A stretch of 64,000 nucleotides of DNA from an uncultured Actinomycetes bacterium. GTDB taxonomy: Bacteria; Actinomycetota; Acidimicrobiia; IMCC26256; PALSA-610. Both the position numbers and the translations under genes were made by a program. Shown here one piece after another: positions 30,064 to 62,108 of this stretch. Positions within the stretch are counted from its first letter, which is position 1. Every line of letters begins with the position of its first letter. The notes under the pieces were generated by a model. That model worked only from the letters and a program-made list of their open reading frames with translations, ran no database searches and was not told the DNA's origin. The stretch lies in assembly GCA_963716525.1 (NCBI GenBank), contig OY970315.1, forward strand, positions 3,996,682 through 4,060,681, given 5' to 3'.

Positions 30064-30107
30064 CATGCGTCGTTTGGGACCGCTATTTGGTACCCAAACG
30101 ACGCATG
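30064..30107 (+). repeat. 44-bp hairpin repeat (REP/MITE-like), copy 1
   Basis: CATGCGTCGTTTGGG-ACCGCTATTTGGTA-CCCAAACGACGCATG. Perfect 15-bp stem. Intergenic, between convergent genes. Confidence 0.95.
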
Positions 30108-30154
30108 GTGGGGCGGGGAGACCTGCTGACGGGGCGCGCGTGTGCGTACGGGGG

Positions 30155-31546
30155 CTATGTGTCGTCGTCGTCGGTCGACGGGAGCGACGCGACGCGGCGC
30201 AGCGTCGAGGCCGGCACGAGCTGCTGGCTCGGGAACACGCGCGGGGGCGTCGGCGCCGCCGCGAAGTTGAACGAGGCGGAGTAGTCGTAGCCCAGCGCGT
30301 CGTTGAGCCCGAGGGGCCACAGGTGGAAGGCCTCCTCGGTGAACCGCAGGATCGACGCGAAGGTGGCGTTGTGCGAGTCGGTGCCCGCCACCTTGGCGTA
30401 CGGGCTGATGATCACCATCGGCTCGCGCAATCCCTGCTGCGTGCCGTCGGGGTTCAGGCTCGGCGGCGCCACGTGGTCGTAGAAACAGCCGCAGTCGTCA
30501 TAGGTGATGAAGATCGCGGTCGACGACCAGTCGCGGCTCGACTGCAGCGCGTTCACGACCTTGGCGATCCAGTTGTCGCCCACGAGCATCGAGCTCGGCG
30601 GGTGCTGCCCGGTGCCGCCCGGACCGGTCGGGGCCAGCACCGAGTACGCCGGCAGGTTGCCGTTCTTCGCGTCGGTCAGGATCTGCTGCGGCGCGACGAC
30701 GTTCGTGTGCTGCGGTCCGTACTGGCACTTGGCGAAGGTGGGGCAGATCGACCAGCCGACGACCGACGCGTAGATCTTCCAGGGAAGCTTGCCCGCGTCG
30801 AGGCGGTCGAAGATCGTCGGCACCGTCTTCACCGGGCTGGGGCGGAACGGGCCCCCGTACGGGAAGCGACCCCGATCGAGCACGCCGGCCGGCGCCGGGA
30901 TGCACGCCGGCTGCATGCTCTGCTTGTGCGTGGTCGGGTCGATCCACGGCGTGATCTTGTACGAGTTGCAACCCCATCCGGGGCCGGGCTTCACGCCGGG
31001 CGCGCTCGACGGGATCGCTCCGGTGAAGTCGTCCTGCGTGGCCGCCGCCACCGCGATGTGACCGCCGAACGACGGGCTGTCGCCGAGCGAGAACGTGCGG
31101 TCCGACACGACGTACTTGCCGGCGAACGCGCTGAGCGCGGGGATCTGCGCCTCGTCGTAGTGCGAGACGCACTGGTTCACCCCGTTGTGCATGCACGTAG
31201 ACAAGCCGTTCCACCCGTCCATGCGGCCGTGATCGATCACCTTGACCTGCGTCTCGACGGTGTGCGGCGGATCGGGTGTGATCACGTCGGGACTCTTGAT
31301 GTTGAACACGAACGAGCCGTCGGCGAGCCGCACCGGCCCGATGTAGCCGTCACAGCGGTGGGGGTGATCGAAGCAGAACGCGCCGAGCACCTCGTCGAAC
31401 GAACGGTTCTCCTGGAAGATCACTACGACATGCTTGATCTTGCCGGCGGGACCGGTCGCCGCGGCCGGCTTCGTTCCTGCCGCCGCGGGCGCAAGCGCCG
31501 CCGACCCCGCGACCACCACGGCCGCCATCAACCATCGCACAGACAT
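30155..31546 (-). CDS. secreted phosphoesterase family protein (phospholipase C / acid phosphatase type)
   Basis: Signal peptide MSVRWLMAAVVVAGSAALAPAAAG, then the hallmark HVVVIFQENRSFDEVLG, and later ITYDDCGCFYDHV. Confidence 0.85.
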   Translation of the reverse strand: MSVRWLMAAVVVAGSAALAPAAAGTKPAAATGPAGKIKHVVVIFQENRSFDEVLGAFCFDHPHRCDGYIGPVRLADGSFVFNIKSPDVITPDPPHTVETQVKVIDHGRMDGWNGLSTCMHNGVNQCVSHYDEAQIPALSAFAGKYVVSDRTFSLGDSPSFGGHIAVAAATQDDFTGAIPSSAPGVKPGPGWGCNSYKITPWIDPTTHKQSMQPACIPAPAGVLDRGRFPYGGPFRPSPVKTVPTIFDRLDAGKLPWKIYASVVGWSICPTFAKCQYGPQHTNVVAPQQILTDAKNGNLPAYSVLAPTGPGGTGQHPPSSMLVGDNWIAKVVNALQSSRDWSSTAIFITYDDCGCFYDHVAPPSLNPDGTQQGLREPMVIISPYAKVAGTDSHNATFASILRFTEEAFHLWPLGLNDALGYDYSASFNFAAAPTPPRVFPSQQLVPASTLRRVASLPSTDDDDT

Positions 31547-31655
31547 GGCAGGGCTCCCCCACTTCGTTCGACTGGCCGGCCGGGCACGCAGGAACGTACC
31601 GCTTCGGCGCGGTGGGCGCCGTAGCTCGCCGCTGGGGCGACCCGCTCGACGGCCT

Positions 31656-32915
31656 TCAGAAGTCGGACTCGGAGAAGGGACCGACCACCGCGAGGGCGCG
31701 GGGTTGGCCGCGCAGCAACCGGTCCACGACGCGGCCGACGTGGTCGAGGGTGACGGCGTCGACGCGGCGCGCCAACTCCTCGAGCGACGGGATCTCGCCC
31801 TCCACCAGCTCGCCGTGGCCCAGCCGGCGCATGCGCGACGACGACGTTTCGAGCGACATGAGCAGTGAGCCGGTGAGGTTGCCCTTGGCGGCCCGCAGCT
31901 CGTCGTCGGTGATGGTGCCCGCACTCGTGATGCGATCGAGCTCGCCGTGCACGAGCCCGAGCGTCTCCTTCGCCCGCTCGACCGTGGTACCGGCGTACAC
32001 GGCGAGGAATCCGCTCTCGTCGAACGCGGCCCGGAACGAGTACACGGAGTACGCGAGGCCGCGATCCTCACGGATCTCCTGGAACAGTCGCGACGACATG
32101 CCGCCGCCGAGCACATGGTTCAGCACGGTGACCGCGTAGCGGTCGGGGTCGCGGTGTGCCGGGGCGCGCACACCCAGTACGAGATGGGCCTGCTCGGTGT
32201 CGCGCTCGACCACGCGCACCGGCCGCGGCGGCGAGAGCGCGGTGTGCTCGCGAGCCGGGCGGGCGCCGTTCGTGGACGGCCCCATGCGCGCGACGAGCTC
32301 GCATACCCGCGCATGGTCGAGGTTTCCTGCCGCCGCGAGCACCGTGTTGGCGGCCCGGTAGTGCGAGCCGTGATAGTCGCGCACCGAGTCGCGGGTCATG
32401 TTCGACACCGTCGTCTCGGAGCCGATCACCTCGCGGCCGAGCGGATGGTCGGGGAACAGGGCGCTCGCGAACACGTCGTGCACGAGGTCGTCGGGCGTGT
32501 CGTCGCGCATCGCGATCTCTTCGAGGATCACCTGCCGCTCGCACTCGACCTCGTCGGGGCGAAACGCGGGACGCCACACGATGTCGCTCAGCACATCGGC
32601 CGCGAGCTCCAGTTGGTCGTCGGGCACGCGCACGTAGAACACCGTCTGCTCGTGCGCGGTGAACGCGTTCATCTCACCGCCCACCGACTCGATCGCGTCG
32701 GCGATGTCGCGGGCGGAGCGTGTCTCGGTGCCCTTGAACAGCAGGTGCTCGAGGAAGTGGCTCGCGCCCACGACCCCGTCGTCCTCGTCGCGCGCGCCCG
32801 TGCCCACCCACGCGCCGATCGTGACGGAACGCAGCTGCGGCAGTGCCTCGGTGACGACGCGCAGCCCCGACGGGAGTTCGGAGCGCTGCACACCGTCCGG
32901 TGCAGGAGGCGTCAC
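31656..32915 (-). CDS. M16 family zinc metallopeptidase (pitrilysin-like)
   Basis: Inverted zinc motif HFLEHLLFKGT plus a downstream Glu (REVILEEI). 4-nt overlap with the pnp stop. Conserved pnp-M16 pairing in actinobacteria. Confidence 0.85.
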   Translation of the reverse strand: MTPPAPDGVQRSELPSGLRVVTEALPQLRSVTIGAWVGTGARDEDDGVVGASHFLEHLLFKGTETRSARDIADAIESVGGEMNAFTAHEQTVFYVRVPDDQLELAADVLSDIVWRPAFRPDEVECERQVILEEIAMRDDTPDDLVHDVFASALFPDHPLGREVIGSETTVSNMTRDSVRDYHGSHYRAANTVLAAAGNLDHARVCELVARMGPSTNGARPAREHTALSPPRPVRVVERDTEQAHLVLGVRAPAHRDPDRYAVTVLNHVLGGGMSSRLFQEIREDRGLAYSVYSFRAAFDESGFLAVYAGTTVERAKETLGLVHGELDRITSAGTITDDELRAAKGNLTGSLLMSLETSSSRMRRLGHGELVEGEIPSLEELARRVDAVTLDHVGRVVDRLLRGQPRALAVVGPFSESDF

Positions 32916-35347: not shown

Positions 35348-35511
35348 GCGACGCTCCTCTCATTGTGACCCGGGCACCTCATGGGGGCCGGGCGCTGGTG
35401 CGAGAGGCGGCGGTTCCCAGTGGTCAGCGTCCCGCCGGCACACGCTCGAAGGCGCGTGCTCGGGACGGTGGCAACCGGTAACCCCCACTGCTCCCGCGCT
35501 GGTTGTGTGCC

Positions 35512-35530
35512 GGGCGCGATGGTCGCGCCC
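35512..35530 (-). promoter_or_regulatory. GC-rich stem-loop just downstream of rpsO (candidate rpsO terminator / pnp-leader processing hairpin)
   Basis: GGGCGCGA-tgg-TCGCGCCC, a perfect 8-bp stem, 10 nt after the rpsO stop within the 192-nt rpsO-pnp spacer. No U-tract follows. Confidence 0.35.
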
Positions 35531-35539
35531 CGCGGCGGT

Positions 35540-35797
35540 CTAGCGGCGGATCCCCAGCTTGGCGATGAGCGCCCGGTAACCCTCGACGTCGTTGGCGCGC
35601 AGGTAGTCGAGCATGCGGCGCCGCTGACCCACGAGCATCAGCAGCCCCCGCCGAGAGTGATGGTCCTTCTTGTGGACCTTCAGGTGCTCGGTGAGGTGCT
35701 GGATCCGCTCGGTGAGCAGCGCGATCTGCACCTCGGTCGACCCGGTATCGGTGTCGTGCCGCCGGTGCTCGGAGATCGTGGCTTGCTTGTTCGGCAT
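35540..35797 (-). CDS. rpsO: 30S ribosomal protein S15
   Basis: 85-aa ORF ...[49 protein letters not shown]... Confidence 0.95.
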
Positions 35798-36063
35798 CTG
35801 GTTCGAAGACTCTCAGGTTCTGCGGGCACGCAGGAGCGGCGCAGGGAATCGCGGGGCTAGACCTCGTCTGCCCGAGACTCGGACGGACGGAAAAAGCTAC
35901 CACGGGCCGGCCGCCGCGCCCCGCCGGGGCGCATCCGGAGCCTGCCTTCCCGGGTGACGGCGAAAACGCGTAGCGACTACGCGGGCTCACTCGGTGCCAT
36001 CTCTCTACCTTCGGGGTGGGGCTCGACTCGACCGGCAACCACTGGCATCCGGGGGCACTTGCC

Positions 36064-36642
36064 ATGATCAGATTCCTTGGCCGTCACGGCATCGCGATCG
36101 TCGCACTGTTCATCGCGCTCGGCGGCACCGCCTACGCGGCCAACACCGTCCGCTCCGCCGACATCGTCGACGGCACGGTCCAGACCCAGGATCTCGCCAA
36201 CAAGGCGGTGACCCCGACCAAGACCACAGGCGTCTGGACGTTCCACACCGTCGCGACCCAGGTGACGTCTGACTGCGCGAAGGCTGCCCAGACCTGGACG
36301 GCGTGCGCGCCCGTCACACTCACAGTTCCGGCCGGGCACCGGTACTCGGTGACCGTGCAGTCGACGGTCGAGATCTACGTCGGCCCCACGCGGACCGAAT
36401 TCACGTTGTTCGACTACTGCGCCGCGTCCTCGGGCCCTTCGTGCTTCGCCGGCACGTACGACGAGTTGCTCGTCAGCGACGGAGAGACGGTGACCGCGAG
36501 CAACGCCGGGCACCGCGTGTACGGGCCCGGTACCTACACGTTCTCAACCGCCATGAAGTCCTACTACGCGGTGCCGAGCTTCAAGAACGCGCACACCACG
36601 ACCACGGTCATCGCGACCGACGCCGCCAACACGACGCATTGA
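36064..36642 (+). CDS. hypothetical secreted/membrane-anchored Cys-containing protein, paralog 1 of 3
   Basis: MIRFLGRHGIAIVALFIALGGTAYAANTVRSADIVDGTVQTQDLANKAVTPTKT... Shares the N-terminal 45 aa, 4 Cys and the GPGTYTFSTAMK motif with the next two genes. Confidence 0.7.
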   Translation: MIRFLGRHGIAIVALFIALGGTAYAANTVRSADIVDGTVQTQDLANKAVTPTKTTGVWTFHTVATQVTSDCAKAAQTWTACAPVTLTVPAGHRYSVTVQSTVEIYVGPTRTEFTLFDYCAASSGPSCFAGTYDELLVSDGETVTASNAGHRVYGPGTYTFSTAMKSYYAVPSFKNAHTTTTVIATDAANTTH

Positions 36643-36669
36643 CGGAGAGCACAGGAACGAGGGAACTCG

Positions 36670-37233
36670 ATGATCCGCTTCATTCGACGTAACACCGTTG
36701 CGTTCATCGCCCTGCTGATCGCGCTCGGCGGCACCGCCTACGCGGCCAACACCGTGCGGTCGATCGACATCGTCGACGGGACCATCAAGACGCAAGATCT
36801 CGCGAACGGCGCGGTGACGCCCACGAAGACCAAGAACGTGGTGACCCTCAACTCGACGAATTTCCAGAAGACCGCTGCGTGCGTGCAACCGCAGATCTGG
36901 TTCGCGTGCACGCCGATCCCCGTGTACGTGCCGGCGGGGCGCCAGTGGCGGGTGACGGTGATCTCGACCGTCAACGCCGAACCGACAGGCACACAATCGA
37001 CGACCGCGCTGTACTGCGCGGCCAAGAGCGGACCCACGTGCATCAACGGCGGCCCGGTGTACGCGACGTTCGGGGCGCACGTCGTGACGAGCGCGACCGA
37101 CACCGCGACAGTCATCGTCGGGCCGGGAAGCTACACGTTCTCCACCGCAGTGAAGTTCCCCGTCACCGTGGTCGACGCTGCCACCATGCACACGACCACC
37201 ACGGTCATCATCACCGATCTGGGCAAGTCATAA
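36670..37233 (+). CDS. hypothetical secreted/membrane-anchored Cys-containing protein, paralog 2 of 3
   Basis: MIRFIRRNTVAFIALLIALGGTAYAANTVRSIDIVDGTIKTQDLANGAVTPTKT...GPGSYTFSTAVKFP...HTTTTVIITD. Confidence 0.7.
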   Translation: MIRFIRRNTVAFIALLIALGGTAYAANTVRSIDIVDGTIKTQDLANGAVTPTKTKNVVTLNSTNFQKTAACVQPQIWFACTPIPVYVPAGRQWRVTVISTVNAEPTGTQSTTALYCAAKSGPTCINGGPVYATFGAHVVTSATDTATVIVGPGSYTFSTAVKFPVTVVDAATMHTTTTVIITDLGKS

Positions 37234-37240
37234 GCGAAAG

Positions 37241-37819
37241 ATGTCGATCATGCTTGCATTTCTCCGGCGCAATCTCATCGCGCTCGTTGCACTGTTCATC
37301 GCGCTCGGCGGCACGGCCTATGCGGCCAACACCGTGCGCTCGACCGACATCGTCGACGGCACGATCAAGACCGTCGACCTCGCCAACAAGGCGGTGACAC
37401 CGGCGAAGACCACCGGCCTCGGCGTGTTGCACTACACCTCGGTTGCGCAGACGAGCGACTGCGCCAGGCAGGCCAACATCTGGAAGGCCTGTGCCGGGAT
37501 CGGCCTGCTTGTTCCTGCGGGCCATGTCTACTCGGTCACGGTGATTTCCGTGGTGCACGCCGATCCGTCTGCCACCCAGGATGCGCACGCCCTGATCTGC
37601 GCGGCGCGGTCGGGACCGACGTGCATGCAGAGCGAGCCTGACTACGTGACGTTCTGGAAGCACGGTGTCACGAGCGCGACGTCGGTTGCATCGGGCATCT
37701 TCGGTCCGGGCAGCTACAGCTTCTCCACGGCCGTCAAGTTCCCCTTTCCGATTCTCGCCGACCCGAACGCGCACACGAGCACCACGTTGATCGTGACCGA
37801 TCGAGCAGCCGAGCAATAG
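37241..37819 (+). CDS. hypothetical secreted/membrane-anchored Cys-containing protein, paralog 3 of 3
   Basis: MSIMLAFLRRNLIALVALFIALGGTAYAANTVRSTDIVDGTIKTVDLANKAVTPAKT...GPGSYSFSTAVKFP...HTSTTLIVTD. Confidence 0.7.
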   Translation: MSIMLAFLRRNLIALVALFIALGGTAYAANTVRSTDIVDGTIKTVDLANKAVTPAKTTGLGVLHYTSVAQTSDCARQANIWKACAGIGLLVPAGHVYSVTVISVVHADPSATQDAHALICAARSGPTCMQSEPDYVTFWKHGVTSATSVASGIFGPGSYSFSTAVKFPFPILADPNAHTSTTLIVTDRAAEQ

Positions 37820-37843
37820 CTCGCGAACGCCCCGCTCGCGCCG

Positions 37844-38785
37844 TCATTGCATCAACTCCCGGGTGCGCGCGACGTCGGCGCGCATCTGCTCGACGAGCGC
37901 GTCGACGCCGTCGAACTTCATCTGGGGGCGGAGGTGGTGCACGAAGCGCACCTCGAGCTCCTGGCCGTAGAGGTCGCCGTCGAAGTCGAGCAGGTACGGC
38001 TCGAGGAGGCGCATGCCGCGCTCGTCGTAGAACGTGGGGCGGCGGCCGAGGGAGATCGCCGCGACGTGCTCGCTACCGTCGCCGGTGCGCACCGTGCCCG
38101 CGTACACCCCATCGGCAGGCACGCAAATGCGCGCCGGCACGGCCATGTTCGCGGTGGGAAACCCGAGCTCGCGGCCGCGATGGTCGCCCTCCTCCACGGC
38201 CCCACGCACCGCATGGAGCCGGCCGAGCACCTCTGCCGCGCCCGCCACGTCGCCCTCGGCGAGCAGGTGGCGGGCACGGGTGGACGAGTAGGCGGGACCG
38301 CCGGGCACCTCGGCCACGAGCCCGTAGCCGATCACCTCGAAGCCGACCTGCGCGCCGACCTCCTCGAGCATCGGCACGTTGCCGGTGCGGTTGTGCCCGA
38401 AGTGGAAGTCGGCGCCCACCACCACGACTCGGGCCGCGCAGATGCCCACGAGCACCTCGCCGACGAAGTCGTCGGCCGTCTCCTTGCTGCGCGCCTCGTC
38501 GAAGGTGAGCACCACCGTGTGGTCGACGAGCCCCGTGGCTGCGAGCAGCTCGAGCTTCTGCGCCAGCGTGGTGAGCAGCGGCGGCGCGCTCGCGGGGCGC
38601 ACGACCTCCGCGGGATGGCGGTCGAACGTGACGATTGCCGACTCCAGGCCTCGTGCCGTCGCGAGCTCGCGCACGAGCCGCAGCAGCGCATGGTGGCCCC
38701 GGTGCACGCCGTCGTACGCGCCGATCGACACGACAGTGCCCGCCGAGATCGGCGGCGGCGCGGCGGGATCACGGTGCACCTGCAC
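37844..38785 (-). CDS. ribF: bifunctional riboflavin kinase / FMN adenylyltransferase
   Basis: VVSIGAYDGVHRGHHALL (FMNAT), GADFHFG, and the kinase part GRELGFPTAN...GVYAG...RPTF. GTG start at 38785. Confidence 0.9.
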   Translation of the reverse strand: MQVHRDPAAPPPISAGTVVSIGAYDGVHRGHHALLRLVRELATARGLESAIVTFDRHPAEVVRPASAPPLLTTLAQKLELLAATGLVDHTVVLTFDEARSKETADDFVGEVLVGICAARVVVVGADFHFGHNRTGNVPMLEEVGAQVGFEVIGYGLVAEVPGGPAYSSTRARHLLAEGDVAGAAEVLGRLHAVRGAVEEGDHRGRELGFPTANMAVPARICVPADGVYAGTVRTGDGSEHVAAISLGRRPTFYDERGMRLLEPYLLDFDGDLYGQELEVRFVHHLRPQMKFDGVDALVEQMRADVARTRELMQ

Positions 38786-41257: not shown

Positions 41258-41343
41258 AGGCGGCCGGTCGAGGCGGCCGGTCGAGGCGGCCGGCGGGTCG
41301 GGCGGCCGGCGGGTCGGGCGGCCGGTCAGGGCGGCCGGTCAGG
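41258..41343. repeat. compound tandem repeat (13/16-bp units ggcggccggtcga, ggcggccggcgggtcg, ggcggccggtcag, each x2) at and downstream of the DUF503 stop codon
   Basis: Read directly from the sequence. The last units contain the tca (TGA on minus) that terminates the DUF503 gene. Confidence 0.9.
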
Positions 41344-41632
41344 CGGTGTCGAGCCAGGTGATCTCGACACCGAGGAGCTCGATGTCGGCCGCGGCGGCCA
41401 CGAAGCGCTCCACCGCGTCGAGCACCTCCTCGACGTGGCGGTGGTCGGCGGCCACCACGGCCACCGCGACGGCCGACCGTTGCCAGGTGTCGTGGTGGTC
41501 GACCTCGGCCACCGACAGGCGAAAGCGGTGCCGCAGGCCGTCGATGACGGGCCGGATCGCGGCCCGCTTGGCTTTGAGCGAGTGGCTCGCGGGCACGTGC
41601 AGCTCGAAGCGGGCCACCGCAGCGTCCATCAC
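41339..41632 (-). CDS. DUF503 (YlxP-like) protein
   Basis: 97-aa ORF MMDAAVARFELHVPASHSLKAKRAAIRPVIDGLRHRF...SVAEV. This is the usual small gene between infB and rbfA in actinobacteria and Firmicutes. Confidence 0.8.
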   Translation of the reverse strand: MMDAAVARFELHVPASHSLKAKRAAIRPVIDGLRHRFRLSVAEVDHHDTWQRSAVAVAVVAADHRHVEEVLDAVERFVAAAADIELLGVEITWLDTA

Positions 41633-44133: not shown

Positions 44134-44607
44134 CGCTCACTCGTCGGCACCTCGCCGACGCGGGCTTCATCGCCGGCGGCGCGCTCCTCATCGCCGAGCG
44201 CGTTCCTCCACTGGGTGCGCCGCGGCAACGGCTCAACGTTGCGCGGCCACGCGCTGATCGACGCGATCGAGTCACTGTCGCACGGCCACTCGAGCGCGGC
44301 GGTCACCGCGCTCACGCTGGGCTGGTACGCGATCCCGGCGTGCGGCGCGCTGGCGTGGATCGTGGTCGGCTTCGGCGACCCGAGAGGAGGCACGGGCCGT
44401 GCCGTCGCCACCGTCACGCTGCTGGTCACCGCGGCGATCGACGCCTACTTCTGGGTGAAGCTCGGCACCCGCGCCGGCCCGGGCGTCTACCTCTCCGCGC
44501 TCGGCGCCCTCTCCACATGCGTCGTTTGGGACCGCTATTTGGTACCCAAACGACGCATGGACAATTTGGACAGGCGTTACGTGCGGGGGATCTCGCGTTC
44601 CTCGTAG
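44130..44607 (+). CDS. possible small multi-TM membrane protein. Apparent frameshift near 44190-44200, and the 3' end runs through hairpin repeat copy 2 into infB.
   Basis: The GTG at 44130 overlaps the upstream stop (GTGA) and gives VTLTRRHLADAGFIAGGALLIA... ORF 44215..44607 continues with hydrophobic segments (VTALTLGWYAIPACGALAWIVVGF, AVATVTLLVTAAIDAYFWV). Weak evidence. Confidence 0.35.
44516..44559 (+). repeat. 44-bp hairpin repeat, copy 2
   Basis: Identical to copy 1. Ends 18 nt before the infB stop region. Confidence 0.95.
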
Positions 44608-50780: not shown

Positions 50781-50824
50781 CATGCGTCGTTTGGGTACCA
50801 AATAGCGGTCCCAAACGACGCATG
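50781..50824 (-). repeat. 44-bp hairpin repeat, copy 3 (loop in opposite orientation)
   Basis: CATGCGTCGTTTGGG-TACCAAATAGCGGT-CCCAAACGACGCATG. Intergenic, between the ligase stop and the sulfotransferase start. Confidence 0.95.
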
Positions 50825-50833
50825 GTGCGCCGA

Positions 50834-50916
50834 GGGGGGCGCCGCCGCCGGGGGGCGCCGCCGCAGGGGTGTGGCGCCGCAGGGGTGTGGCGCAGCGGCG
50901 GGGCGGGGCGGCGGGG
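50834..50916. repeat. G-rich tandem duplications adjoining hairpin copy 3
   Basis: ggggggcgccgccgc(c) x2, then aggggtgtggcgc(cgc) x2, then gcggggcggggcggcgggg. Ends at the ligase stop codon. Confidence 0.85.
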
Positions 50917-50917
50917 C

Positions 50918-51991
50918 TCAGGCGCGGAACAGGGCCCGCAGCTCGGCCGGGGGGACCACCTCGAGCTGGTCATAGCGGCACGACGACGGGTCGCGGTCGT
51001 CACGCCAGCGCTTGAAGTGTGCGTTGTGCCGGAACCGACCGTTCGTCAGACCTTGATAGTCGACCTCGACGACCCGCTCCACCCGCAGCGGCTCCCACGA
51101 GAGGTCCTTCGTCGCGTTCCAGCGCGACACGTTGCCGGGCGCGCGCCCCGGCGTGACGTGCTCCGCGGCGAGCTCCACCCACTGCCGCCAGGGGTGATCC
51201 TCGAGCGCGTGCTCGCGCAGCGGCGCGACGTCACCGAGCAGCTGCTCACGCACCTTGGCGCTCATGCCCGACGCCACCCCGACGTGTTGCAGCACTCCCG
51301 AGCCGTCGTAGAGGCCGAGCAGGAGCGACCCGACGCCGTTGCCGTCCTTGTGCATGCGAAAGCCCGCGACCGCGCAGTCGCAGGTGCGCTCGTGCTTGAT
51401 CTTGACGAGCGTGCGCTGCCCCGGCGCGTACGGATCGCGCACCGGCTTGGCGATCACACCGTCGAAACCCGCGCCCTCGAAGCTGTCGAACCAGGCGCGC
51501 GCGGTGACGGGGTCGCGCGTTGCCGGCGTGAGCAGCAGCGGCGGGCGCGGCCCCTCCAGCAGCTGCTCGAGGCGGGCGCGGCGTTCCTCCATCGCGGTCG
51601 GCAGCAGCGACTCGTCACCCACGGCCAGCAGGTCGAAGGCCACGTAGCACGCGGGGATCTCCACGCTCAGCTTGCGGACTCGCGATTCCGCGGGATGCTG
51701 GCGCAGCTGCAGCACGTCGAAGTCGAGTCCGCCGTGCACGCCGACCACCACGAGCTCCCCGTCGAGCACGCAGCGATCGGGCAGCTGTGAGAGCAGCGGG
51801 TCGCGCAGCTCGGGGAAGTAGCGCAGCAACGGCTTCTGGTTCCGGCTCTGCAGATCGAGCTCGTCGCCGTCGCGGAACACCACGCACCGGAAGCCGTCCC
51901 ACTTCGGCTCGAAGATGAAGCCGTCGCCGTCGGGCACCTCGCGAGTGAGCTTCGCGAGCATCGGCTCGAACGGCGGGCGCACCGGGAGCAT
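50918..51991 (-). CDS. ATP-dependent DNA ligase (minimal LigC-type: adenylation + OB domains)
   Basis: Motif I EPKWDGFR (KxDG), plus [21 protein letters not shown] and LVKIKHERT motifs. Start at [15 protein letters not shown]. Confidence 0.85.
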
Positions 51992-52968: not shown

Positions 52969-53012
52969 CATGCGTCGTTTGGGACCGCTATTTGGTACCC
53001 AAACGACGCATG
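52969..53012 (+). repeat. 44-bp hairpin repeat, copy 4, located inside the proS reading frame
   Basis: Identical core, flanked by additional palindromic gcg/cgc. Translated in the proS frame as [15 protein letters not shown], with no stop. Confidence 0.95.
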
Positions 53013-53013: not shown

Positions 53014-53049
53014 GCGGCCGGGGCGGCCGGGGCGGCCGGGGCGGCGCGG
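53014..53049. repeat. 4 x 9-bp tandem repeat (gcggccggg) adjoining hairpin copy 4 inside proS
   Basis: Read directly from the sequence. Encodes [11 protein letters not shown] in the proS frame. Confidence 0.9.
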
Positions 53050-53798
53050 GTGGCGACCTCGACGTTGGCGGCGTAGTCGCAGCTCGGGCACCACACGAAG
53101 TCGTCCTCGCCCACCTCGGCCACCGCCATGAACTCGTGGTTCACGTCGCCACCGATCTCGCCGGCCTCCCCCTCGACGGCGCGGAACACCAAACCGCAAC
53201 GTTCGAACACCCGCGAGTACCGCGTCGTACATGCGCTGGTAGGTGACGAGCAGGCTCTCGTGGTCGGGATGGAAGCTGTACGCGTCCTTCATCAGGAACT
53301 CGCGGCCGCGCAGCAGGCCGAAACGGGGCCGCACCTCGTCGCGGTACTTCCAGTTGATCTGGTACAGGTTCACCGGCAGGTCGCGGTAGCTCGTGTACTC
53401 GTTCGCGACCGTCGCGGTGATCACCTCCTCGGCCGTCGGCACGAGCGCGAAGCCGGTCTCCTTGCGGTCCTCGAACCGGAACATCGTGGGGCCGTACGCC
53501 TTGTCGCGCCCGCTGCGTTGCCAGAGCTCGAGCGGCTGCGGGATCGGCAGGATCACCTCCTGGGCGCCTACCGCGTCCATCTCCTCCCGGACGATGCCCT
53601 CCACCTTGCGCAACACACGCCGGCCGAGCGGCAGCCACGAGTAGATCCCCGCCGCCACCTTGCGGATGTAGCCGGCCCGCACGAGCAGGCGGTGGCTGTC
53701 GACGTCGGCGTCGGCCGGGTCGTCGCGCAGCGTGCGCAGGAACAGCTCGGACATCCGCATAGGGCCCGGAGGCTAGACACGGGCGGGCCCCCTGAAAG

Positions 53799-53815
53799 CT
53801 GACTCATACAGTCAG
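53799..53815. promoter_or_regulatory. inverted repeat CTGACT-catac-AGTCAG in the AT-richer proS/sir divergent promoter region (candidate operator)
   Basis: Perfect 6-bp arms, with a third CTGAC half-site at 53824..53828. The local sequence ctgaaagctgactcatacagtcagaaaaattcctgacc is far below the window GC. Confidence 0.25.
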
Positions 53816-54041
53816 AAAAATTCCTGACCAAAGAGGTGGCATTTCGGGCCCGACCGGAGTACCGTGCCCCGCATGAGCCACGTGCTGCGTGTGACCGGGG
53901 CACCGTCGATCGCGATGGGCCGCACACCGCACGAGGTCCGCGACGAGCTCTGTCGCCCTGAAATCGCTTCCCGCTGAGCCGTAACGGCTCGGCGGCACTG
54001 CTCCCTTTCTTTCCGTACCGACCTCGATCGAGGAGGCGCGC

Positions 54042-55831
54042 GTGGCCATCGACGTGCGTGAGCTACAGACCCGAAGCCTGCCCCCCGACATCGCCGAGGA
54101 GCTCGACCGCTACGAGCAGACCGTCGCCGAGTACCTCGCGGGCGACGTCGACGAGGACGTCTTTCGCGTCTTCCGCCTGAACAACGGCATCTACGGCCAG
54201 CGCCAGGGCGGCCACAACCAGATGGTCCGGGTCAAGGTGCCGTACGGCAAGGTCACGCCCGAACAGCTCGAGGTGCTCGGCTTCGTCTCCGAGCACTTCA
54301 GCCGCGGTTGGGGCCACCTCACCACGCGCCAGAACGTGCAGTTCCACTTCGTCGAGCTCGAGAAGACGCCTGAAGTGGTGCGCCTGCTCGCGAGCTGCGG
54401 TCTCACCACCCGCGAGGCGTGCGGCGACACGGTGCGCAACGTCGTCGGCTGCCATCTCGCCGGCGCGTGCCCGCACGAGGTGCTCGACATCTCGCCGTGG
54501 GCCGAGGCGGCGGCGCGCACGTTGTTGCGCCACCCGTACGCGCAGCGGTTACCCCGCAAGTTCAAGATCAACTTCTCGGGCTGCGCCACCGACTGCGGCC
54601 AGGCGATGTTCAACGACGTCGGCGTGATCGCGGTGAACCGCACGCACGACGACGGCACCGTCGAAGCCGGGTTCAAGGTCGTGATCGCCGGCGGGCTCGG
54701 CGCCAACCCGCACCCGGCGCTCGCGCTCGAGGAGTTCACGAGCCGAGACGACCTGATGCCCACGATCGAGGCGTGCCTGCGCACGTTCGACCACTACGGC
54801 AACCGCGACAACAAGCTGCGCGCCCGCATGAAGTGGCTCGTCGACACGATGGGCATCGACGAGCTCCGTGAGCGCATCTTCAAGGAGCGCAAGTTCCTGC
54901 GCGGCTCGGTCAGCTGGCCCGGCGGGGTGCCGCAGACGGTGCGCGAGCGCGGCGATGCGCCCGCCGGCACCGGCGCCGGTCCGGTCAGCGGCACACCGGG
55001 CGGCGAGACGGTGGTGCGCCTGCCGCGCGCGACCCCTACGAGCGCTGGGCCGAAGCCAACGTGGTGCGCGGTGTGGCGAACGGCACGGTGAGCGCGTACG
55101 CGTCATGCGAGCTCGGCGACATCACCACCGAGCAGTTCGACGGGCTCGCCGAGATCCAGCGCGACTTCAACCTCGATGTGCGCATCACGAGTCGCCAGAA
55201 CTTCGCGTTCCGCGACCTCACCGAAGGCGACCTGCGCCGCGCTCTACGAACGCCTCGACGCAATCGGCATGGCCCGTCCGGGCGCCGAGCTCGCCGCGAC
55301 GTGGTGGCCTGCCCCGGCGCCGACACGTGCAACCTCGCGGTCACCCAGTCGCGTGGGCTCGCCTCGGCGATCGGCGAGGCGCTCGAGGACGCGGGTCTGT
55401 CCGACGTCGGCGGCGTGCGCGTCAACATCAGCGGCTGCACGAACAGCTGCGGCCAGCACCACATCTCCGACATCGGCTTCTTCGGCCTGGAACGGCGAGC
55501 GCACGGCCAGGCCGCGCCCGGCTACCAGATGCTGCTCGGCGGCCATCTCGGCGACGAGCAGGTGGAGTTCGGCGACAAGGCCACCAAGCTCCCGGCCAGG
55601 AACGCGCCGGAGGCCGTCGTGCGCGTCGTCCGGCGCTTCGCCGACGAGCGCAACGCAGGTGAGGCGTTCAGTGGTTGGCTGGAGCGCAGCGGCGGCGCGG
55701 CCGGAGTGGGTTCGGCCCTCCGCGAGCTCGACGAGTTCCCCGAACCCGAGGTGAGCCCCGAGTTCTATGTCGACTACGGCGAGACCGGCCCCTACGTCAA
55801 GGAGATCGGCGAGAGCGAGTGCGCGACGTGA
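54042..55831 (+). pseudogene. sir: assimilatory sulfite reductase (ferredoxin-type, NirA/SirA family), three 1-nt frameshifts
   Basis: N half is ORF 54042..55091 (NNGIYGQRQ..., TTRQNVQFH, TTREACGDTVRNV). It continues as DPYERWAEANVVRGV... in frame 55061. A short excursion into frame 55176 follows (ALYERLDAIGMARPGAELA). It then returns to DVVACPGADTCNLAVTQSRGL...SGCTNSCGQHHISDIGF (siroheme/4Fe-4S Cys motifs). Confidence 0.85.
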
Positions 55832-57452: not shown

Positions 57453-57651
57453 GGCGCACTCGTGTGACAGCGAAGCCCGCGTGGGCAGCCATGGGGACCA
57501 TTTCCTCTGACATGAACCGGAACGAGATCGCGCTGCTCGCGGGCCGCTGCGTTGCGCCGCACGATACCGGCCGGCCCGCGGCGCAGCGGTCACCGCGAGG
57601 CACGGATCGCGCCGTGCGAGCCCGGCGATCGAGTGTCGCGTTCAGCGCGGG

Positions 57652-57932
57652 CGCCGGGCTGCCGATCAGAAGGTGCCGCGCACCGCTCGGGTGTCCGCTT
57701 CGCGGCAATCTGAACGGGACCATCGAACTACCATGACCGCGCTCTCCAGCCTCCCCCCACGCCCCCACGCCCGCACGAGCCCGGCCGCCGGGGGTCGCGT
57801 GCGACGCGGCCGCCGGGCTGCCGATCAGAAGGCGCCACGCACCGGCCGGTGTCCGCTTCGCGGCAATCTGAACGGGACCATCGAACTACCATGACCGCGC
57901 TCTCCAGCCTTCCCCCACGCCCCCACGAGCCC
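57652..57932 (+). repeat. tandem duplication (period about 158 bp, about 125 bp conserved) of the cysD leader, start codon and first 14 codons
   Basis: The two copies are cgccgggctgccgatcagaagg...gtccgcttcgcggcaatctgaacgggaccatcgaactaccATGaccgcgctctccagcct.cccccacgcccccacg. The ATGs are at 57733 and 57891, with only a few substitutions and one indel between copies. Confidence 0.9.
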
Positions 57933-58862
57933 GCTGACCGGGTGCAGAGGACCGCCGTGCACACCCAGCTGTCGCATCTCCAGGCGCTCGAGGCCGAGTC
58001 CGTCCACATCATGCGCGAGGTGGCGGCCGAGTTCGAGCGGCCCGTGCTGCTCTTCTCCGGCGGCAAGGACTCCGCGGTGATGCTGCACCTCGCGTGGAAG
58101 GCGTTCAAGCCGGCACGCATCCCGTTCCCGGTGATGCACGTCGACACCGGCCACAACTTCGACGAGGTGATCAGCTACCGCGACGAGGTCATCGGCACGT
58201 ACGGCGTGCGGCTCGTCGTGGCGAGCGTGCAGGAGTCGATCGACAAGGGTCGCGTCGTCGAGGAGACCGGACCGCGGGCGAGCCGCAACCGGCTGCAGAC
58301 CACCACGCTGCTCGACGCCATCACCGAGCACCAGTTCGACTCGGTGTTCGGCGGTGGCCGGCGCGACGAGGAGAAGGCCCGCGCCAAGGAGCGGGTGTTC
58401 AGCTTCCGCGACGAGTTCGGCCAGTGGGACCCGAAGACGCAGCGGCCCGAGCTGTGGTCGCTCTACAACGGCCGGCACCGCAAGGGTGAGCACATCCGCG
58501 TGTTCCCCATCTCCAACTGGACCGAGATGGACATCTGGCAGTACATCGCGTCGGAGCCGGTGCCGATCCCGTCGATCTACTTCGCGCACCGCCGGCGCGT
58601 GTTCCGCCGCGACGGCATGTGGCTCTCGGAGTCGCCGATCATCCCGATGCTGCCCGACGAAGAGGTCGTGGAGATGACGGTGCGCTACCGCACCGTCGGC
58701 GACCTCACGTGCACGGGTGCAGTCGAGTCACCTGCTGCCACGGCCGAGGAGATCATCGTCGAGGTCGCGGCGTCGCGGATCACCGAACGCGGCGCCACCC
58801 GCGCCGACGACAAGTTCACCGAAGCGGCAATGGAAGACCGCAAGAAGGAGGGCTACTTCTGA
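57891..58862 (+). CDS. cysD: sulfate adenylyltransferase subunit 2
   Basis: QLSHLQALEAESVHIMREVAAEFERPVLLFSGGKDSAVMLHLA...HVDTGHNF...RDEEKARAKERVFSFRD...EDRKKEGYF. In-frame GTG at 57849 is an alternative start. Confidence 0.9.
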   Translation: MTALSSLPPRPHEPADRVQRTAVHTQLSHLQALEAESVHIMREVAAEFERPVLLFSGGKDSAVMLHLAWKAFKPARIPFPVMHVDTGHNFDEVISYRDEVIGTYGVRLVVASVQESIDKGRVVEETGPRASRNRLQTTTLLDAITEHQFDSVFGGGRRDEEKARAKERVFSFRDEFGQWDPKTQRPELWSLYNGRHRKGEHIRVFPISNWTEMDIWQYIASEPVPIPSIYFAHRRRVFRRDGMWLSESPIIPMLPDEEVVEMTVRYRTVGDLTCTGAVESPAATAEEIIVEVAASRITERGATRADDKFTEAAMEDRKKEGYF

Positions 58863-58939
58863 TGCGCCAGCATCACGCCACCCCGCCTTCGAGGACTGAC
58901 CGTCAAGCTGCAGACCGCAAGAAGGAGGGGTACTTCTAG
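58835..58939 (+). repeat. 28-bp direct repeat of the cysD 3' end (agaccgcaagaaggaggg[c/g]tacttctRR), copies at 58835..58862 and 58912..58939
   Basis: Read directly from the sequence. The copies are 77 bp apart. The first ends in the cysD TGA, and the second ends in TAG 2 nt before the cysN ATG. Confidence 0.9.
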
Positions 58940-58941
58940 CC

Positions 58942-60195
58942 ATGGAGATGCTCCGCTTCGCCACCGCCGGCTCCGTCGACGACGGTAAGAGCACGCTGAT
59001 CGGGCGCCTCTTGCTCGAGACCAAGGCGATCTTCGAGGACCAGCTCGAGAGCGTCGAGCGGTCGTCGCGCGACCGCGGGTTCGACTACACGAACCTCGCG
59101 CTGCTCACCGACGGCCTGCGCGCCGAGCGGGAACAGGGCATCACGATCGATGTCGCCTACCGCTACTTCGCCACGCCGCGCCGCAAGTTCATCATCGCCG
59201 ACACCCCCGGCCACATCCAGTACACGCGCAACATGGTGACGGGCGCGTCGACGGCCGACCTCGCGCTCGTGCTCGTGGACGCGCGCAACGGCGTCGTCGA
59301 GCAGAGCCGCCGCCACGCGGTGATCGCGTCGCTGCTGCAGGTGAAGCACCTCGTGCTGTGCGTGAACAAGCTCGATCTCGTCGACTACGACGAGCGTCGC
59401 TTCGAGTCGATCTGCGCCGAGTTCACCGACTTCGCGGCCAAGCTCGACATCGACGACCTCACGTTCATCCCTGTCTCCGCGCTGCTCGGCGACAACGTCA
59501 CCAGCCACTCCGACAACACCCCGTGGTACGACGGCCCCACGTTGCTGCACCACCTCGAGCACGTGTACATCGCCTCCGACCGCAACCTCATCGACCCGCG
59601 GTTCCCGGTGCAGCTCGTGATCCGGCCGATGAGCCACGATCATCACGACTACCGCGGCTACGCGGGCGTGGTTGCCGGCGGCATCTTCCGGCCCGGCGAC
59701 GAGGTCGTGGTACTGCCGTCGGGCTTCACCACCACCATCGAGGCGATCGACCGGTTCGGCGAGCCGATCGACGAGGCGTTCCCGCCCAGCGCGGTCACGA
59801 TCCGCCTGCGCGACCAGATCGACATCAGCCGGGGCGACATGCTGTGCCGCACGAACAACCAGCCGGCCGTCACCCAGGACGTCCAAGCCCAGATCTGCTG
59901 GTTCAGCCCCGAGCGCACGCTCGAGCGCGACCGCGTGTACGCGATCAAGCACACCACGCGGTGGGCCCGGGCGAAGGTGGTCGACCTGCTCTACCGGCTC
60001 GATGTCAACACGCTCTCGCGCGACGAGTCGTGCCCGCAGCTGCGGCTGAACGACATCGGCCGCGTGAAGCTGCGCACCACCCAGCCGCTGTTCGTCGACG
60101 AGTACCGGCGCAACCAGAGCACCGGCTCGTTCATCCTCGTCGACGAGGGCACGAACGAAACGGTGGCCGCCGGCATGATCATCGGGTCTGACTGA
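58942..60195 (+). CDS. cysN: sulfate adenylyltransferase subunit 1 (GTPase CysN, no fused APS-kinase domain)
   Basis: LRFATAGSVDDGKSTLIGRLL, DTPGHIQY and NKLD GTPase motifs. 417 aa, ending right after the EF-Tu-like beta-barrel domains. Confidence 0.9.
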   Translation: MEMLRFATAGSVDDGKSTLIGRLLLETKAIFEDQLESVERSSRDRGFDYTNLALLTDGLRAEREQGITIDVAYRYFATPRRKFIIADTPGHIQYTRNMVTGASTADLALVLVDARNGVVEQSRRHAVIASLLQVKHLVLCVNKLDLVDYDERRFESICAEFTDFAAKLDIDDLTFIPVSALLGDNVTSHSDNTPWYDGPTLLHHLEHVYIASDRNLIDPRFPVQLVIRPMSHDHHDYRGYAGVVAGGIFRPGDEVVVLPSGFTTTIEAIDRFGEPIDEAFPPSAVTIRLRDQIDISRGDMLCRTNNQPAVTQDVQAQICWFSPERTLERDRVYAIKHTTRWARAKVVDLLYRLDVNTLSRDESCPQLRLNDIGRVKLRTTQPLFVDEYRRNQSTGSFILVDEGTNETVAAGMIIGSD

Positions 60196-60270
60196 CCGCT
60201 CGCGCGAGGAGCCTCGTGGCGCGTCGCTCTACAACGCTGTAGGACGCCCTTCGATAACCTCCTGCACCCT

Positions 60271-60999
60271 ATGAGCCTGGCGACACGGGGCATCAAGCTC
60301 CTCAACGAGGTCGAACGGCGCCGGCGCACGCGCCGGCCGGTGGAGGACGCGTGGAAGAGCGCGCTCGCCGGCGAGGTGCGCCACTGGGAGCGCGCGGTCA
60401 AGACCTGGAAGCAGCTCACCGACCGCTTCGATCCCGACCAACCGCTCTACGCGCCGCTCGCCGAGCTCGCCACCGCGATGGCGCCGGCCGGCTCGACGAT
60501 CAAGGTGATCGACGTGGGCGCGGGGCCCATCACGTGCGTCGGCAAGAAGCTTTCCGGCTACACCGTCGAGAACCGCGCGGTCGACGTGCTCGGCGACGAG
60601 TACCGGGGCGTGCTCGAACGGGCGGAGCTGGCACCGCCGGTGTGGACCGAGCAGTGCAACTCCGAGAAGCTGTCGGAGAAGTTCGGTGAGAACGTGTTCG
60701 ACCTCGCCTACGCCCGCAACACGCTCGACCACAGTTACGACCCGCTGCTCGCCATCCGCGAGATGGTGCGGATCGTGAAGCCCGGCGGCGCGGTGATGCT
60801 GGAGCACGCACCCGACGAGGCCGAGGAGGAGAAGTACCTCGGTCTGCACCAGTGGAACCTGCGCTGCGAGCAGGGGCGGTTCGTGGTGTGGCGGCGCGAT
60901 ACCCGCATCGACGTGGGCAACGAGCTCGCCGCCATGGCGACGGTCGAGCTCGCCCGCGACGCGCCCCCCCTCCACCGGGTCATCCTCCGCAAGCACTGA
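60271..60999 (+). CDS. class I SAM-dependent methyltransferase
   Basis: Motif I VIDVGAGPITCVG and VKPGGAVMLEH. No closer assignment is possible. Confidence 0.7.
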   Translation: MSLATRGIKLLNEVERRRRTRRPVEDAWKSALAGEVRHWERAVKTWKQLTDRFDPDQPLYAPLAELATAMAPAGSTIKVIDVGAGPITCVGKKLSGYTVENRAVDVLGDEYRGVLERAELAPPVWTEQCNSEKLSEKFGENVFDLAYARNTLDHSYDPLLAIREMVRIVKPGGAVMLEHAPDEAEEEKYLGLHQWNLRCEQGRFVVWRRDTRIDVGNELAAMATVELARDAPPLHRVILRKH

Positions 61000-61000
61000 C

Positions 61001-61044
61001 CATGCGTCGTTTGGGTACCAAATAGCGGTCCCAAACGACGCATG
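61001..61044 (-). repeat. 44-bp hairpin repeat, copy 5
   Basis: Starts 2 nt after the methyltransferase stop. Same loop orientation as copies 3 and 6. Confidence 0.95.
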
Positions 61045-61075
61045 CGCGGGGGTGGCTAGGCCGCGCTATGTCCTG

Positions 61076-62026
61076 CTAGGCCGCTTCGCGGCGCAAGGTC
61101 GCGAGGAGCGCGAGCAGCTCGGGGCATCCGCGGGCGATCTCCTCGTCGCCCACGGCGGAGATGTCGATGCCGTGGAGCGTCCGTATGCGCAGGGCGCGCG
61201 CGATGTCGTACTGATGCTGGCGGACACCGCCGTGGGTCGAGAACGGGTTCACCTCGACGGCACGGTGAAACTCGGACAGGTAGAAGTCGAGGCGCACCGT
61301 CCAGGTGGGACTCAGGCTGAGCTCGTACTGCGGCACGATCTCGTAGCCGGCCGCGAGGAGTGCGCGACCGACGAGGATCTCGGGCGGACTCTCCGTCTGG
61401 CTCAGCGCGGGCTGGAACTGGTCGAGCGCGCGCCGCGCGGCCCGGGCACCGATCCGGAACTCTGGCGCGAGGCGCTCGTAGGTGCGCTCGAGCTGCTCGA
61501 GATCGGTGAGACCGCGCCGGACCGCGTCCTGCATCGCCAACACGAGCACTTCGAGCTCGATGTGGCCGAGGGCGACGGAGGTGCCCAGGTCGATGAGCGT
61601 CCGCGCGACCCGAGTGCGCGGGATGCCGTCGATCTCGACGACGTCGCGCTCCGACAGATGGAACGATTCGTGCACGCACAGCTCGAAGCCGGCGACATCG
61701 CTGCCGCGGGCGCGCCGCCATCGCGGACTGGCGACCTCCACTACGGACGCTCGCCCCGGCAGCCGCCACAGCCACGCCGACGAGCGATGCGACACACTCG
61801 ACAGCCGCCGACCGGCGCTCGCGGCGAACAAGGCACCGGGAAGCTCGATCGGCGCCCCACCAACGGCATAGACGCCCTGCCTGAGCACCCGTAAGCGGTG
61901 CTGGTCGACGAGCCTCTTGATGCTGTTCGGCGACAGCGCCAGCTCGTGCAGCAGCTGGTCCCGGGTGACGACGCCGTGCTGGCACGCAGCCATGGCAGAC
62001 AACGCTCGCTCTCGTGCAACATTCAT
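61076..62026 (-). CDS. AbiEi_4-like N-terminal domain / DUF559 (Vsr-like endonuclease fold) C-terminal domain protein
   Basis: N-terminus ...CQHGVVTRDQLLHELALSPNSIKRLVDQHRLRVLRQGVYAVGG is typical of AbiEi-family antitoxin-like wHTH proteins. The C-terminus has VRLDFYL...AVEVN..., which is PD-(D/E)xK-like. Start at MNVARERAL. Confidence 0.65.
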   Translation of the reverse strand: MNVARERALSAMAACQHGVVTRDQLLHELALSPNSIKRLVDQHRLRVLRQGVYAVGGAPIELPGALFAASAGRRLSSVSHRSSAWLWRLPGRASVVEVASPRWRRARGSDVAGFELCVHESFHLSERDVVEIDGIPRTRVARTLIDLGTSVALGHIELEVLVLAMQDAVRRGLTDLEQLERTYERLAPEFRIGARAARRALDQFQPALSQTESPPEILVGRALLAAGYEIVPQYELSLSPTWTVRLDFYLSEFHRAVEVNPFSTHGGVRQHQYDIARALRIRTLHGIDISAVGDEEIARGCPELLALLATLRREAA

Positions 62027-62064
62027 GCTCGCAAGCACACCAGAACCCTCGGACAGCCCCCGAC

Positions 62065-62108
62065 CATGCGTCGTTTGGGTACCAAATAGCGGTCCCAAAC
62101 GACGCATG
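62065..62108 (-). repeat. 44-bp hairpin repeat, copy 6
   Basis: Identical core, 39 nt upstream of the AbiEi-like gene start. Confidence 0.95.

Follow-up and report, generated by a model that had tools for sequence, protein, structure and literature searches.

To our knowledge, the repetitive extragenic palindromic (REP) sequences and their REP-associated tyrosine transposases (RAYTs) are the main worked example so far of a vertically inherited repeat population that is accompanied by an enzyme in bacterial chromosomes. REPs flank their cognate RAYT gene and have a conserved 5′-terminal GT(A/G)G beside the palindrome (PMC3686654). The accounts at hand also describe joint diversification of REP and RAYT and persistence of the repeats under vertical inheritance (PMC3686654; bioRxiv 10.1101/2024.10.14.618302). 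Palindromic elements of another kind, those of Rickettsia, reside in frame in housekeeping genes (PMC10969869). Here, a 64-kb stretch of the chromosome of an uncultured member of the Acidimicrobiia (contig OY970315.1; hereafter the window) was analysed together with about 190 kb of related loci. It carries six identical copies of a 44-bp hairpin, two of which bracket a gene for a protein with an AbiEi module and a Vsr-type nuclease domain. These hairpins belong to a chromosomal family of an Acidimicrobiia clade, and it is about an even chance (roughly 0.5) that the AbiEi/Vsr-type nuclease is a partner that drives copying or conversion of the solo hairpins.

The arrangement is closest in design to REP/RAYT. 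Short palindromic chromosomal repeats are combined with a partner gene in single copy, on both sides of which its cognate repeats lie. Repeat and gene diverge together between related genomes, and most copies are extragenic and have stayed at orthologous positions. The six copies of this short palindrome in 64 kb comprise four that are wholly extragenic, one that overlaps the 3′ end of an open reading frame (ORF) and one that is intragenic. Several features, however, differ from REP/RAYT. The conserved element begins with CATG, GATG or GGG followed by CGTCGT, and neither GTAG nor GTGG is present in the conserved part of 14 members. The flanking copies are direct, whereas REPs are inverted around the RAYT gene, and the stem is much longer (15-18 bp). 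The partner combines an AbiEi winged helix-turn-helix (wHTH) with a Vsr/PD-(D/E)xK-type nuclease, whereas RAYT is an HUH Y1 transposase. The host belongs to the Actinomycetota (Acidimicrobiia), whereas REP/RAYT is found in the Proteobacteria. The initial annotation of the window described the repeat as REP/MITE-like (MITE, miniature inverted-repeat transposable element). The REP-like appearance holds, but a strict assignment to REP or MITE does not, with no target-site duplication (TSD), no 5′ GT(A/G)G and no adjacent Y1 transposase. The terminal CATG is part of the stem; in relatives it is GATG...CATC or GGG...CCC, which is inverted and not direct. MITEs also have a parental insertion sequence (IS); none was found here, and no transposase family is represented among the window genes or the neighbours at related loci.

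The window was searched with the pattern CATGCGTCGTTTGGG-N14-CCCAAACGACGCATG, in which up to three mismatches were tolerated. Six matches were obtained, at 30064, 44516, 50781, 52969, 61001 and 62065, all of them free of mismatches and 100% identical over 44 bp; 100 dinucleotide-preserving shuffles gave none. The loop ACCGCTATTTGGTA is on the plus strand in three copies, and its reverse complement is there in the other three. These positions, the perfect 15-bp stem and the loop orientations agree with the initial annotation. On folding, the stem is continued by three inner pairs (ACC/GGT) and a single bulged base, and 5-7 nt are left in the loop. As single-stranded DNA, the 44-mer has a folding energy of -20.5 kcal/mol (z = -9.9). 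Its GC content is 54.5% and not about 52% as first estimated, and it is indeed lower than that of the surroundings (65-75% in 2-kb windows over the whole window, 69-75% near the copies). Conservation among the six copies ends precisely at 44 bp, and the flanks are mutually unrelated. The left flanks are C-rich and the right flanks G-rich, as had been seen earlier, but they add only a few pairs that are copy-specific and outside the conserved element (e.g. CGCG/CGCG in copy 4); the longer imperfect palindrome suggested from them was not borne out. A covariance-model scan of the window gave zero additional or degenerate copies. Of the six reading frames of the 44-mer, five are open. An uptake-signal-like word (of the type of DNA uptake sequences or uptake signal sequences) was also considered and rejected: CGTCGTTTG is confined to the six hairpins and has no solitary half-sites.

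Copy 1 (30064..30107; CTAT-loop strand plus) is solo and lies between the convergent ends of two genes, one for a 788-aa secreted-type protein ending at 29843 and the other for a phosphoesterase ending at 30155. Copy 2 (44516..44559, plus) is solo and located 17 bp past the stop codon of infB (44577, minus strand); it overlaps a small, conserved ORF for a membrane protein (44134-44607) at the 3′ end of that ORF. Copy 3 (50781..50824, minus) is solo in the spacer between the genes for an ATP-dependent DNA ligase and a sulfotransferase. Copy 4 (52969..53012, plus) lies in frame inside proS, which is on the minus strand. It encodes 15 residues in the variable linker of prolyl-tRNA synthetase (ProRS) ahead of the editing domain. 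The copy follows the CxxC...YAANVE motif, and the proS frame is open throughout the copy. Copies 5 (61001..61044, minus) and 6 (62065..62108, minus) form the downstream and upstream boundaries, respectively, of the nuclease gene unit. One copy within a gene had been reported and was found again (copy 4), while copy 2, which had been counted at a gene boundary, also overlaps an ORF. The copies had further been placed beside accessory-type genes; this did not hold, as three of the six sites are next to or inside core genes (proS, infB and ligase). The palindromic repeat in frame in a housekeeping gene, tolerated as an additional peptide segment, resembles the Rickettsia palindromic elements. Those elements are, however, about 100-150 bp long, are found in Rickettsia and are not known to have a partner gene; of the six copies here, a single one is intragenic.

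Exact-stem matches were few in pattern scans of genome and metagenome collections. Diverged members of the family were found in one Acidimicrobiia MAG (metagenome-assembled genome; JBBREP01, loci L001, L002, L011 and L014) and in a few metagenome contigs. Among 14 distinct members, the basal stem GCGTCGT...ACGACGC is invariant and mostly lengthened to (AT)GCGTCGTTTG. The upper stem is variable, and the loop core is of the CTAT type (NCTATNN). Compensatory changes on both sides were counted at nine pairs of the 16-pair helix, in which 93.8% of the cells are paired. None of 500 shuffles matched the observed percentage of paired cells, the number of cells changed on both sides or the covariation score, and only one of 500 attained nine double-change pairs. 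When the register was slid, pairing fell to 27-46%. The arms are almost always perfectly Watson-Crick, and the rare mismatches have no strand bias; assignment of a strand by wobble pairs was indecisive (seven G·T against three A·C). Since mismatches are rare and not strand-biased, the hairpin could be formed equally on either DNA strand. The observations point to an element that acts at the DNA rather than the RNA level.

No described family accounted for the hairpin. Rfam gave no match at gathering thresholds for the whole window, nor at E <= 1 for 60950-62200. None of the six copies is followed by a T tract, and no terminator-like site was detected at the two hairpins in the scanned region 60900-62250. 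A known RNA family or an intrinsic terminator was rejected on the basis of the missing Rfam match and T tract. Searches of plasmid and phage collections by blastn gave no match to the 44-mer, and viral contigs gave none either, so that a known IS, MITE, plasmid or phage sequence was rejected as well. The proposal of a genuine, undescribed repeat family in the initial annotation is in accord with these results.

That annotation had also allowed for an adapter or assembly artefact. A technical origin of the 44-mer (adapter, linker or assembly error) is, in our estimation, next to impossible. The element does have a designed look, with its perfect palindrome, a KpnI site (GGTACC) at the stem/loop junction and CATG ends, and indel errors do occur in the assembly, where proS, rnj and sir are frameshifted. 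However, genes are colinear across every copy and in frame in proS, and diverged members are present at the same sites in independent assemblies, namely short-read MAGs of Acidimicrobiia and JGI contigs, which is counted as refutation. It should be added that three housekeeping genes of the window are split, each by a single frameshift: proS at ~53215, where there is an extra G in GACGCG[G]TACTCG, the sulfite reductase gene at ~55061-55091 and the RNase J gene at ~16295-16330. These are most likely indel errors of the long-read assembly and not pseudogenes, and the hairpins are unaffected by such errors.

A second palindromic family, CCGTGGTCCCAC-variable-GTGGGACCACGG, is present in relatives (L002:1197-1316, L008:16333-16377, L006:12384, L012:10286) and absent from the window. 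It has the same design, with a conserved basal stem and a variable centre. In L008 and L006 it holds the site 3′ of infB that is taken by the 44-mer family in the window and L011.

The gene between copies 5 and 6 (61076..62026, minus strand) encodes a protein of 316 aa. The initial annotation had listed it as an AbiEi-like neighbour of the repeats; it is, in fact, bracketed by two of the copies. The hairpin-gene-hairpin unit (61001..62108, minus, 1108 bp) lies between convergent methyltransferase and sulfotransferase genes, and no ORF other than the AbiEi-Vsr gene is present between copies 5 and 6. Copy 5 is 31 nt past the stop codon of the nuclease gene and 1 nt past that of the methyltransferase gene, and copy 6 is 38 nt before the start codon. 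Both copies share the orientation in which the CTAT strand is the sense strand of the nuclease gene. The N-terminal ~200 residues of the protein form a complete AbiEi module, consisting of a wHTH and the AbiEi C-domain (PADLOC E = 1e-19; Foldseek match 6y8q). The C-terminal ~100 residues form a nuclease domain of the Vsr/DUF559 type, and the AlphaFold2 model has a predicted local distance difference test score (pLDDT) of 91. The nuclease domain was matched by Foldseek to 3r3p (TM 0.67 on target), 3hrl, 1cw0, 4oky and 4par; among the proteins with a matching fold are PvuRts1I/AbaSI, the homing endonuclease I-Bth0305I, NGO0050, Vsr and the R2 restriction-like endonuclease. By profile search, 3hrl was hit with E = 1.4e-5 and 3r3p with E = 8.7e-4. 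Glu216, Asp247, Glu258, His265, Asp274 and Arg277 are invariant among 25 homologues.

In L011, the methyltransferase and sulfotransferase genes are only 7 bp apart (TGA|CGCGGTA|TCA), with neither hairpin nor gene between them. The filled junction in the window is …TGAC[HP]CGCGGG…gene…GAC[HP]CGCGGGTTAG…, in which HP is the hairpin. Comparison of the filled and empty junctions means that the 1.1-kb unit is a precise insertion, both ends of which have the same immediate flanks. Close orthologues of the protein are 63-66% identical, and their DNA was compared for three genomes besides that of the window. In all four genomes the orthologue lies between two hairpins of the same orientation that are identical or differ by 1 nt, and the CTAT strand is the sense strand of the gene. 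The gaps are 36-52 nt upstream and 2-31 nt downstream. The four units are at four different loci, all of them convergent spacers. In addition to the sulfotransferase/methyltransferase site of the window, the unit is located between acetyltransferase and P450 genes (L014/L015, hairpins differing by 1 nt), between DUF179 and fpg (L018/L019, hairpins identical) and beside a Kelch/glyoxal-oxidase gene (L012/L013, where the contigs break inside the hairpins). A fifth orthologue (P0124), compared for gene context only, follows the same methyltransferase gene as that of the window in the opposite orientation. In each genome, the gene-flanking pair is the best-conserved hairpin pair.

For RAYT, bracketing by the genome's own repeat variant is the pattern that identifies the cognate enzyme. 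The same pattern bears on the alternative that the hairpins are substrates of a single-strand transposase (REP/RAYT, IS200/IS605-derived or like palindrome-associated transposable elements, PATE), with a Y1 HUH enzyme encoded outside the window. Short perfect hairpins in both orientations, the extragenic bias and the lack of a TSD would all be expected from it. The gene bracketed in four of four genomes by the genome's own hairpin variant is, however, AbiEi-Vsr, and the flanking pair is the best conserved one. Moreover, the 5′ GT(A/G)G that defines REPs (PMC3686654) is missing from the conserved element. No Y1, TnpA or TnpB family match was obtained among the window genes tested or the genes listed for related loci, which for the window agrees with the transposase- and RAYT-free picture given earlier. 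Mobilisation by such a Y1 enzyme is judged very unlikely, and so is its corollary that the AbiEi-Vsr gene is a passenger or a favoured landing site. The unit shares with IS200/IS605 and PATE hairpins on the same strand at its ends instead of terminal inverted repeats, the lack of a TSD, and gene-less hairpin derivatives scattered in the genome. In contrast to those elements, the end hairpins here are identical to each other, neither TnpA (Y1) nor TnpB is present, and the solo element is a single 44-bp hairpin and not a left end joined to a right end.

Vsr-like homing endonucleases, whether free-standing or borne by introns (I-Bth0305I, PDB 3r3p), have the same nuclease fold and a precise presence or absence of the gene at a site. 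The proposed logic is also the same, namely cleavage of a site followed by repair-copying from the gene-linked template. The presumed target here is, however, a dispersed multi-copy palindrome, whereas theirs is a single allele, and the gene is bounded by complete target copies and does not interrupt the target. DNA recognition would come from the AbiEi module, and cleavage is predicted. The fold and the conserved acidic and His residues are those of a Vsr-like nuclease, save for Asn or Ser in place of the Asp of the E-x-D motif in the clade. What is seen of a homing endonuclease gene is its footprint, with a precise filled and empty site and four different loci.

The N-terminal part invites comparison with the AbiE type IV toxin-antitoxin system. 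AbiEi binds inverted repeats in its own promoter, and the present protein has a complete AbiEi-like N-terminal module and a hairpin 38 nt upstream of its gene. No AbiEii (DUF1814 nucleotidyltransferase) toxin gene, however, adjoins the partner gene in any of the four genomes, and the protein is fused to a nuclease domain. The unit is not an AbiE toxin-antitoxin pair, because there is no adjacent AbiEii gene. No link between DUF559/AbiEi proteins and repeats was found in the literature.

The right part of the window has the synteny of a core chromosome: proS, the ATP-dependent ligase gene, the sulfotransferase gene, rimP, nusA and infB are in the same order in relatives, the ProRS of which is 76-80% identical to that of the window. 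Three of the six window hairpins (proS, the ligase/sulfotransferase spacer and 3′ of infB) have orthologous occupied sites in these relatives. At the proS site, L006 and L008 have hairpins of equal length at the very position of copy 4, and the site is empty in L011, the more distant relative. The upper stems at this site are GGG/CCC in the window, GAC/GTC in L006 and AGCGTCG/CGACGCT in L008, with the loop core AATAGCG kept. The ligase/sulfotransferase spacer is occupied in the window, L008 and L011, and a decayed remnant, ACGCGTCGCGCAAC…GGTCAGACGGCGCC, is found in L006. The third site, 3′ of infB, holds a hairpin both in the window and in L011, but with the loop reversed between the two.

The hairpins at the proS site are identical between genomes at 25-31 of 44 positions (57-70%), compared with 78-90% for the flanking proS DNA. 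Non-orthologous copies inside one genome are 89-100% identical overall. In the window, the value is 44/44 for all six copies. In the DASXZO genome, the proS hairpin and one upstream of dapB share 39 of 43 positions (17/17 in the variable part), and the gene-flanking copy and the ligase-spacer copy share 40 of 45; the L014 pair is identical at 43 of 44. Since three of the six sites are also occupied in species ~20% diverged in ProRS, the window copies are not recent insertions; it is their sequence identity that is recent. Persistence of the sites together with genome-specific sequences amounts to concerted evolution, in which a copy in the same genome would overwrite the existing hairpins.

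These sites can also be viewed in terms of host regulatory or structural elements that are not mobile. The hairpins would then be operators of an AbiEi-type wHTH, with autoregulation from the hairpin upstream of its gene, and, at gene ends, bidirectional terminators or mRNA-stabilising hairpins without a U tract. Selection would keep the copies identical, with a nuclease domain that plays no part or is inactive. Most solo copies are indeed at 3′ ends, often between convergent genes (copies 1 and 2; L001, L004), and the sites persist across species. Autoregulation of AbiEi through inverted repeats is known, the fold of the partner matches 6y8q, and the clade has lost the Asp of the E-x-D motif. 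However, selection on the stem leaves unexplained that loops and upper stems agree fully among the copies of one genome and differ by 30-43% at orthologous sites. One copy is inside proS, where a terminator would do harm, and there is no T tract. The loop orientation relative to transcription varies by site and is flipped at the infB site between genomes. Further, the unit is found at four different loci, with a clean empty site in one relative. A purely regulatory or structural role is therefore considered unlikely.

For the partnership between hairpin family and nuclease, the sequences show the family itself with its covarying structure, genome-specific sequences at orthologous sites, the bracketing of the gene in four of four genomes, movement of the hairpin-gene-hairpin unit from one convergent intergenic spacer to another with a precise empty site, and the fold of the protein. 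The solo hairpins hold long-lived sites at gene ends, with one in frame in proS. The following course of events may be proposed. The protein would bind the invariant basal stem GCGTCGT(TTG)/(CAA)ACGACGC, in the form of either a hairpin/cruciform or an inverted repeat, and would nick or cut at the base of that stem. The "master" hairpin beside the gene might then serve for repair or copying, by which the upper stem and loop, the variable parts, would be overwritten in the solo copies. As a result of such overwriting, all copies would be identical in an active genome, as they are in the window. Copying that runs on into the second hairpin might place the gene at another hairpin site. Given the palindromic arms, the loop could end up in either orientation, and its reversal at the infB site would be accounted for. 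The genome of the window might represent a lineage caught just after a burst of conversion. We infer that the protein binds or cuts the hairpins and drives the copying. That all this amounts to a new class of repeat-enzyme partnership, a non-HUH analogue of REP/RAYT in which a hairpin-bounded nuclease maintains, relocates and periodically overwrites chromosomal hairpins, falls somewhat short of even odds. Nick- or break-induced copying as the route of overwriting, with one target translated in an essential aminoacyl-tRNA synthetase, is put forward equally tentatively.

Several points weigh against this proposal. The hairpin-associated clade has Asn or Ser for the Asp of the E-x-D motif, and the predicted nuclease may be attenuated or inactive, to judge from this substitution. 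The homology arms for templated repair would be merely 10-15 bp. Arm-to-arm correction within the palindrome could yield "covariation" without selection. A Y1 transposase may be encoded elsewhere in the 4.59-Mb genome, beyond the window and the related loci. The JBBREP genome has the unit (L014), yet its solo hairpins (L011, L001) are un-homogenised, and the DASXZO genome has two hairpin subtypes, with a hairpin 4.7 kb from the unit that differs in subtype. Conversion, if real, would thus be episodic or selective. Nearness of the solo copies to the gene was rejected as the cause of identity, given the other subtype of the DASXZO hairpin at 4.7 kb. Finally, distant homologues of the protein (about 30-38% identity; L016, L020 and L024) are not bracketed by hairpins. 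Extension of the partnership to the whole AbiEi_4+DUF559 family was rejected for this reason, and the partnership belongs to the close clade only.

One of these distant homologues deserves a brief description. In L016 (33% identity), a 16-nt motif, TTTC..C.GCTATGCG, is present at 2990-3005, in the start-codon region, and at 3954-3969. The second motif copy lies in a downstream hairpin with a 14-bp stem, the loop of which is also CTAT. The shared motif could be due to chance or could be a remote echo of the same arrangement.

Tandem arrays start 0-3 bp from copies 3, 4 and 6, where the initial annotation had rightly placed short tandem repeats. The probability that at least three of six random positions abut an array is 5e-6. 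The array at 50827..50921 has periods of 13-16 and starts 3 bp from copy 3. The 9-bp repeat at 53014..53050 (four units) abuts copy 4 and encodes PAAPAAPAA in ProRS. The 11-bp repeat GCGCGGGTTAG at 62108..62151 (four units) abuts copy 6 and repeats the stop-codon region of the sulfotransferase gene. All three arrays are missing from every relative compared. They are on the higher-coordinate side regardless of the loop orientation. Of 32 2-kb windows, 24 have a negative GC skew, and in cumulative terms the skew falls from -0.02 to -0.47 across the window. Both the side of the arrays and the GC skew would be in keeping with slippage or with repair of a break, either where a fork is arrested at the stem base or where a nuclease cuts there. 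Under the proposed partnership, breaks or stalled forks at the stem base would account for the tandem duplications beside the three copies.

Two further repeats in the window may be mentioned here. A 158-bp tandem duplication (57617-57960) consists of two copies, 87-90% identical, upstream of and into cysD (PAPS_reduct). A complex G-rich tandem array (41258-41351; periods 13, 16 and 29) separates the DUF503/rbfA operon from the gene for an extracytoplasmic function (ECF) sigma factor.

If the partnership is real, it would be a second, independently evolved system with another enzyme fold in another phylum, and the lifestyle known from REP/RAYT would be general and no proteobacterial curiosity. 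AbiEi_4+DUF559 proteins are numerous in Actinomycetota, and annotation routinely mislabels them as antitoxins or "very short patch repair endonucleases". For one clade of this very large, uncharacterised family, a first function would be provided. The hairpins are also a natural case of concerted evolution in dispersed 44-bp sequences, one of them within an essential gene.

There is a practical side as well. Short-read contigs end within gene-flanking hairpins (L012:1-15; both ends of L013). The hairpin repeat fragments MAG assemblies and may conceal the nuclease gene in incomplete bins. The hairpins could, in turn, act as strain markers.

Two minor observations concern other parts of the window. 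Its lowest-GC stretch is 36000-38000 (65%), which contains three consecutive plus-strand ORFs (36016-37819) with no Pfam match. The recA gene (4111-7590, minus strand) is split by an intein with a LAGLIDADG homing-endonuclease domain, as seen from the Pfam matches RecA, Intein_splicing, LAGLIDADG_3 and RecA_C.

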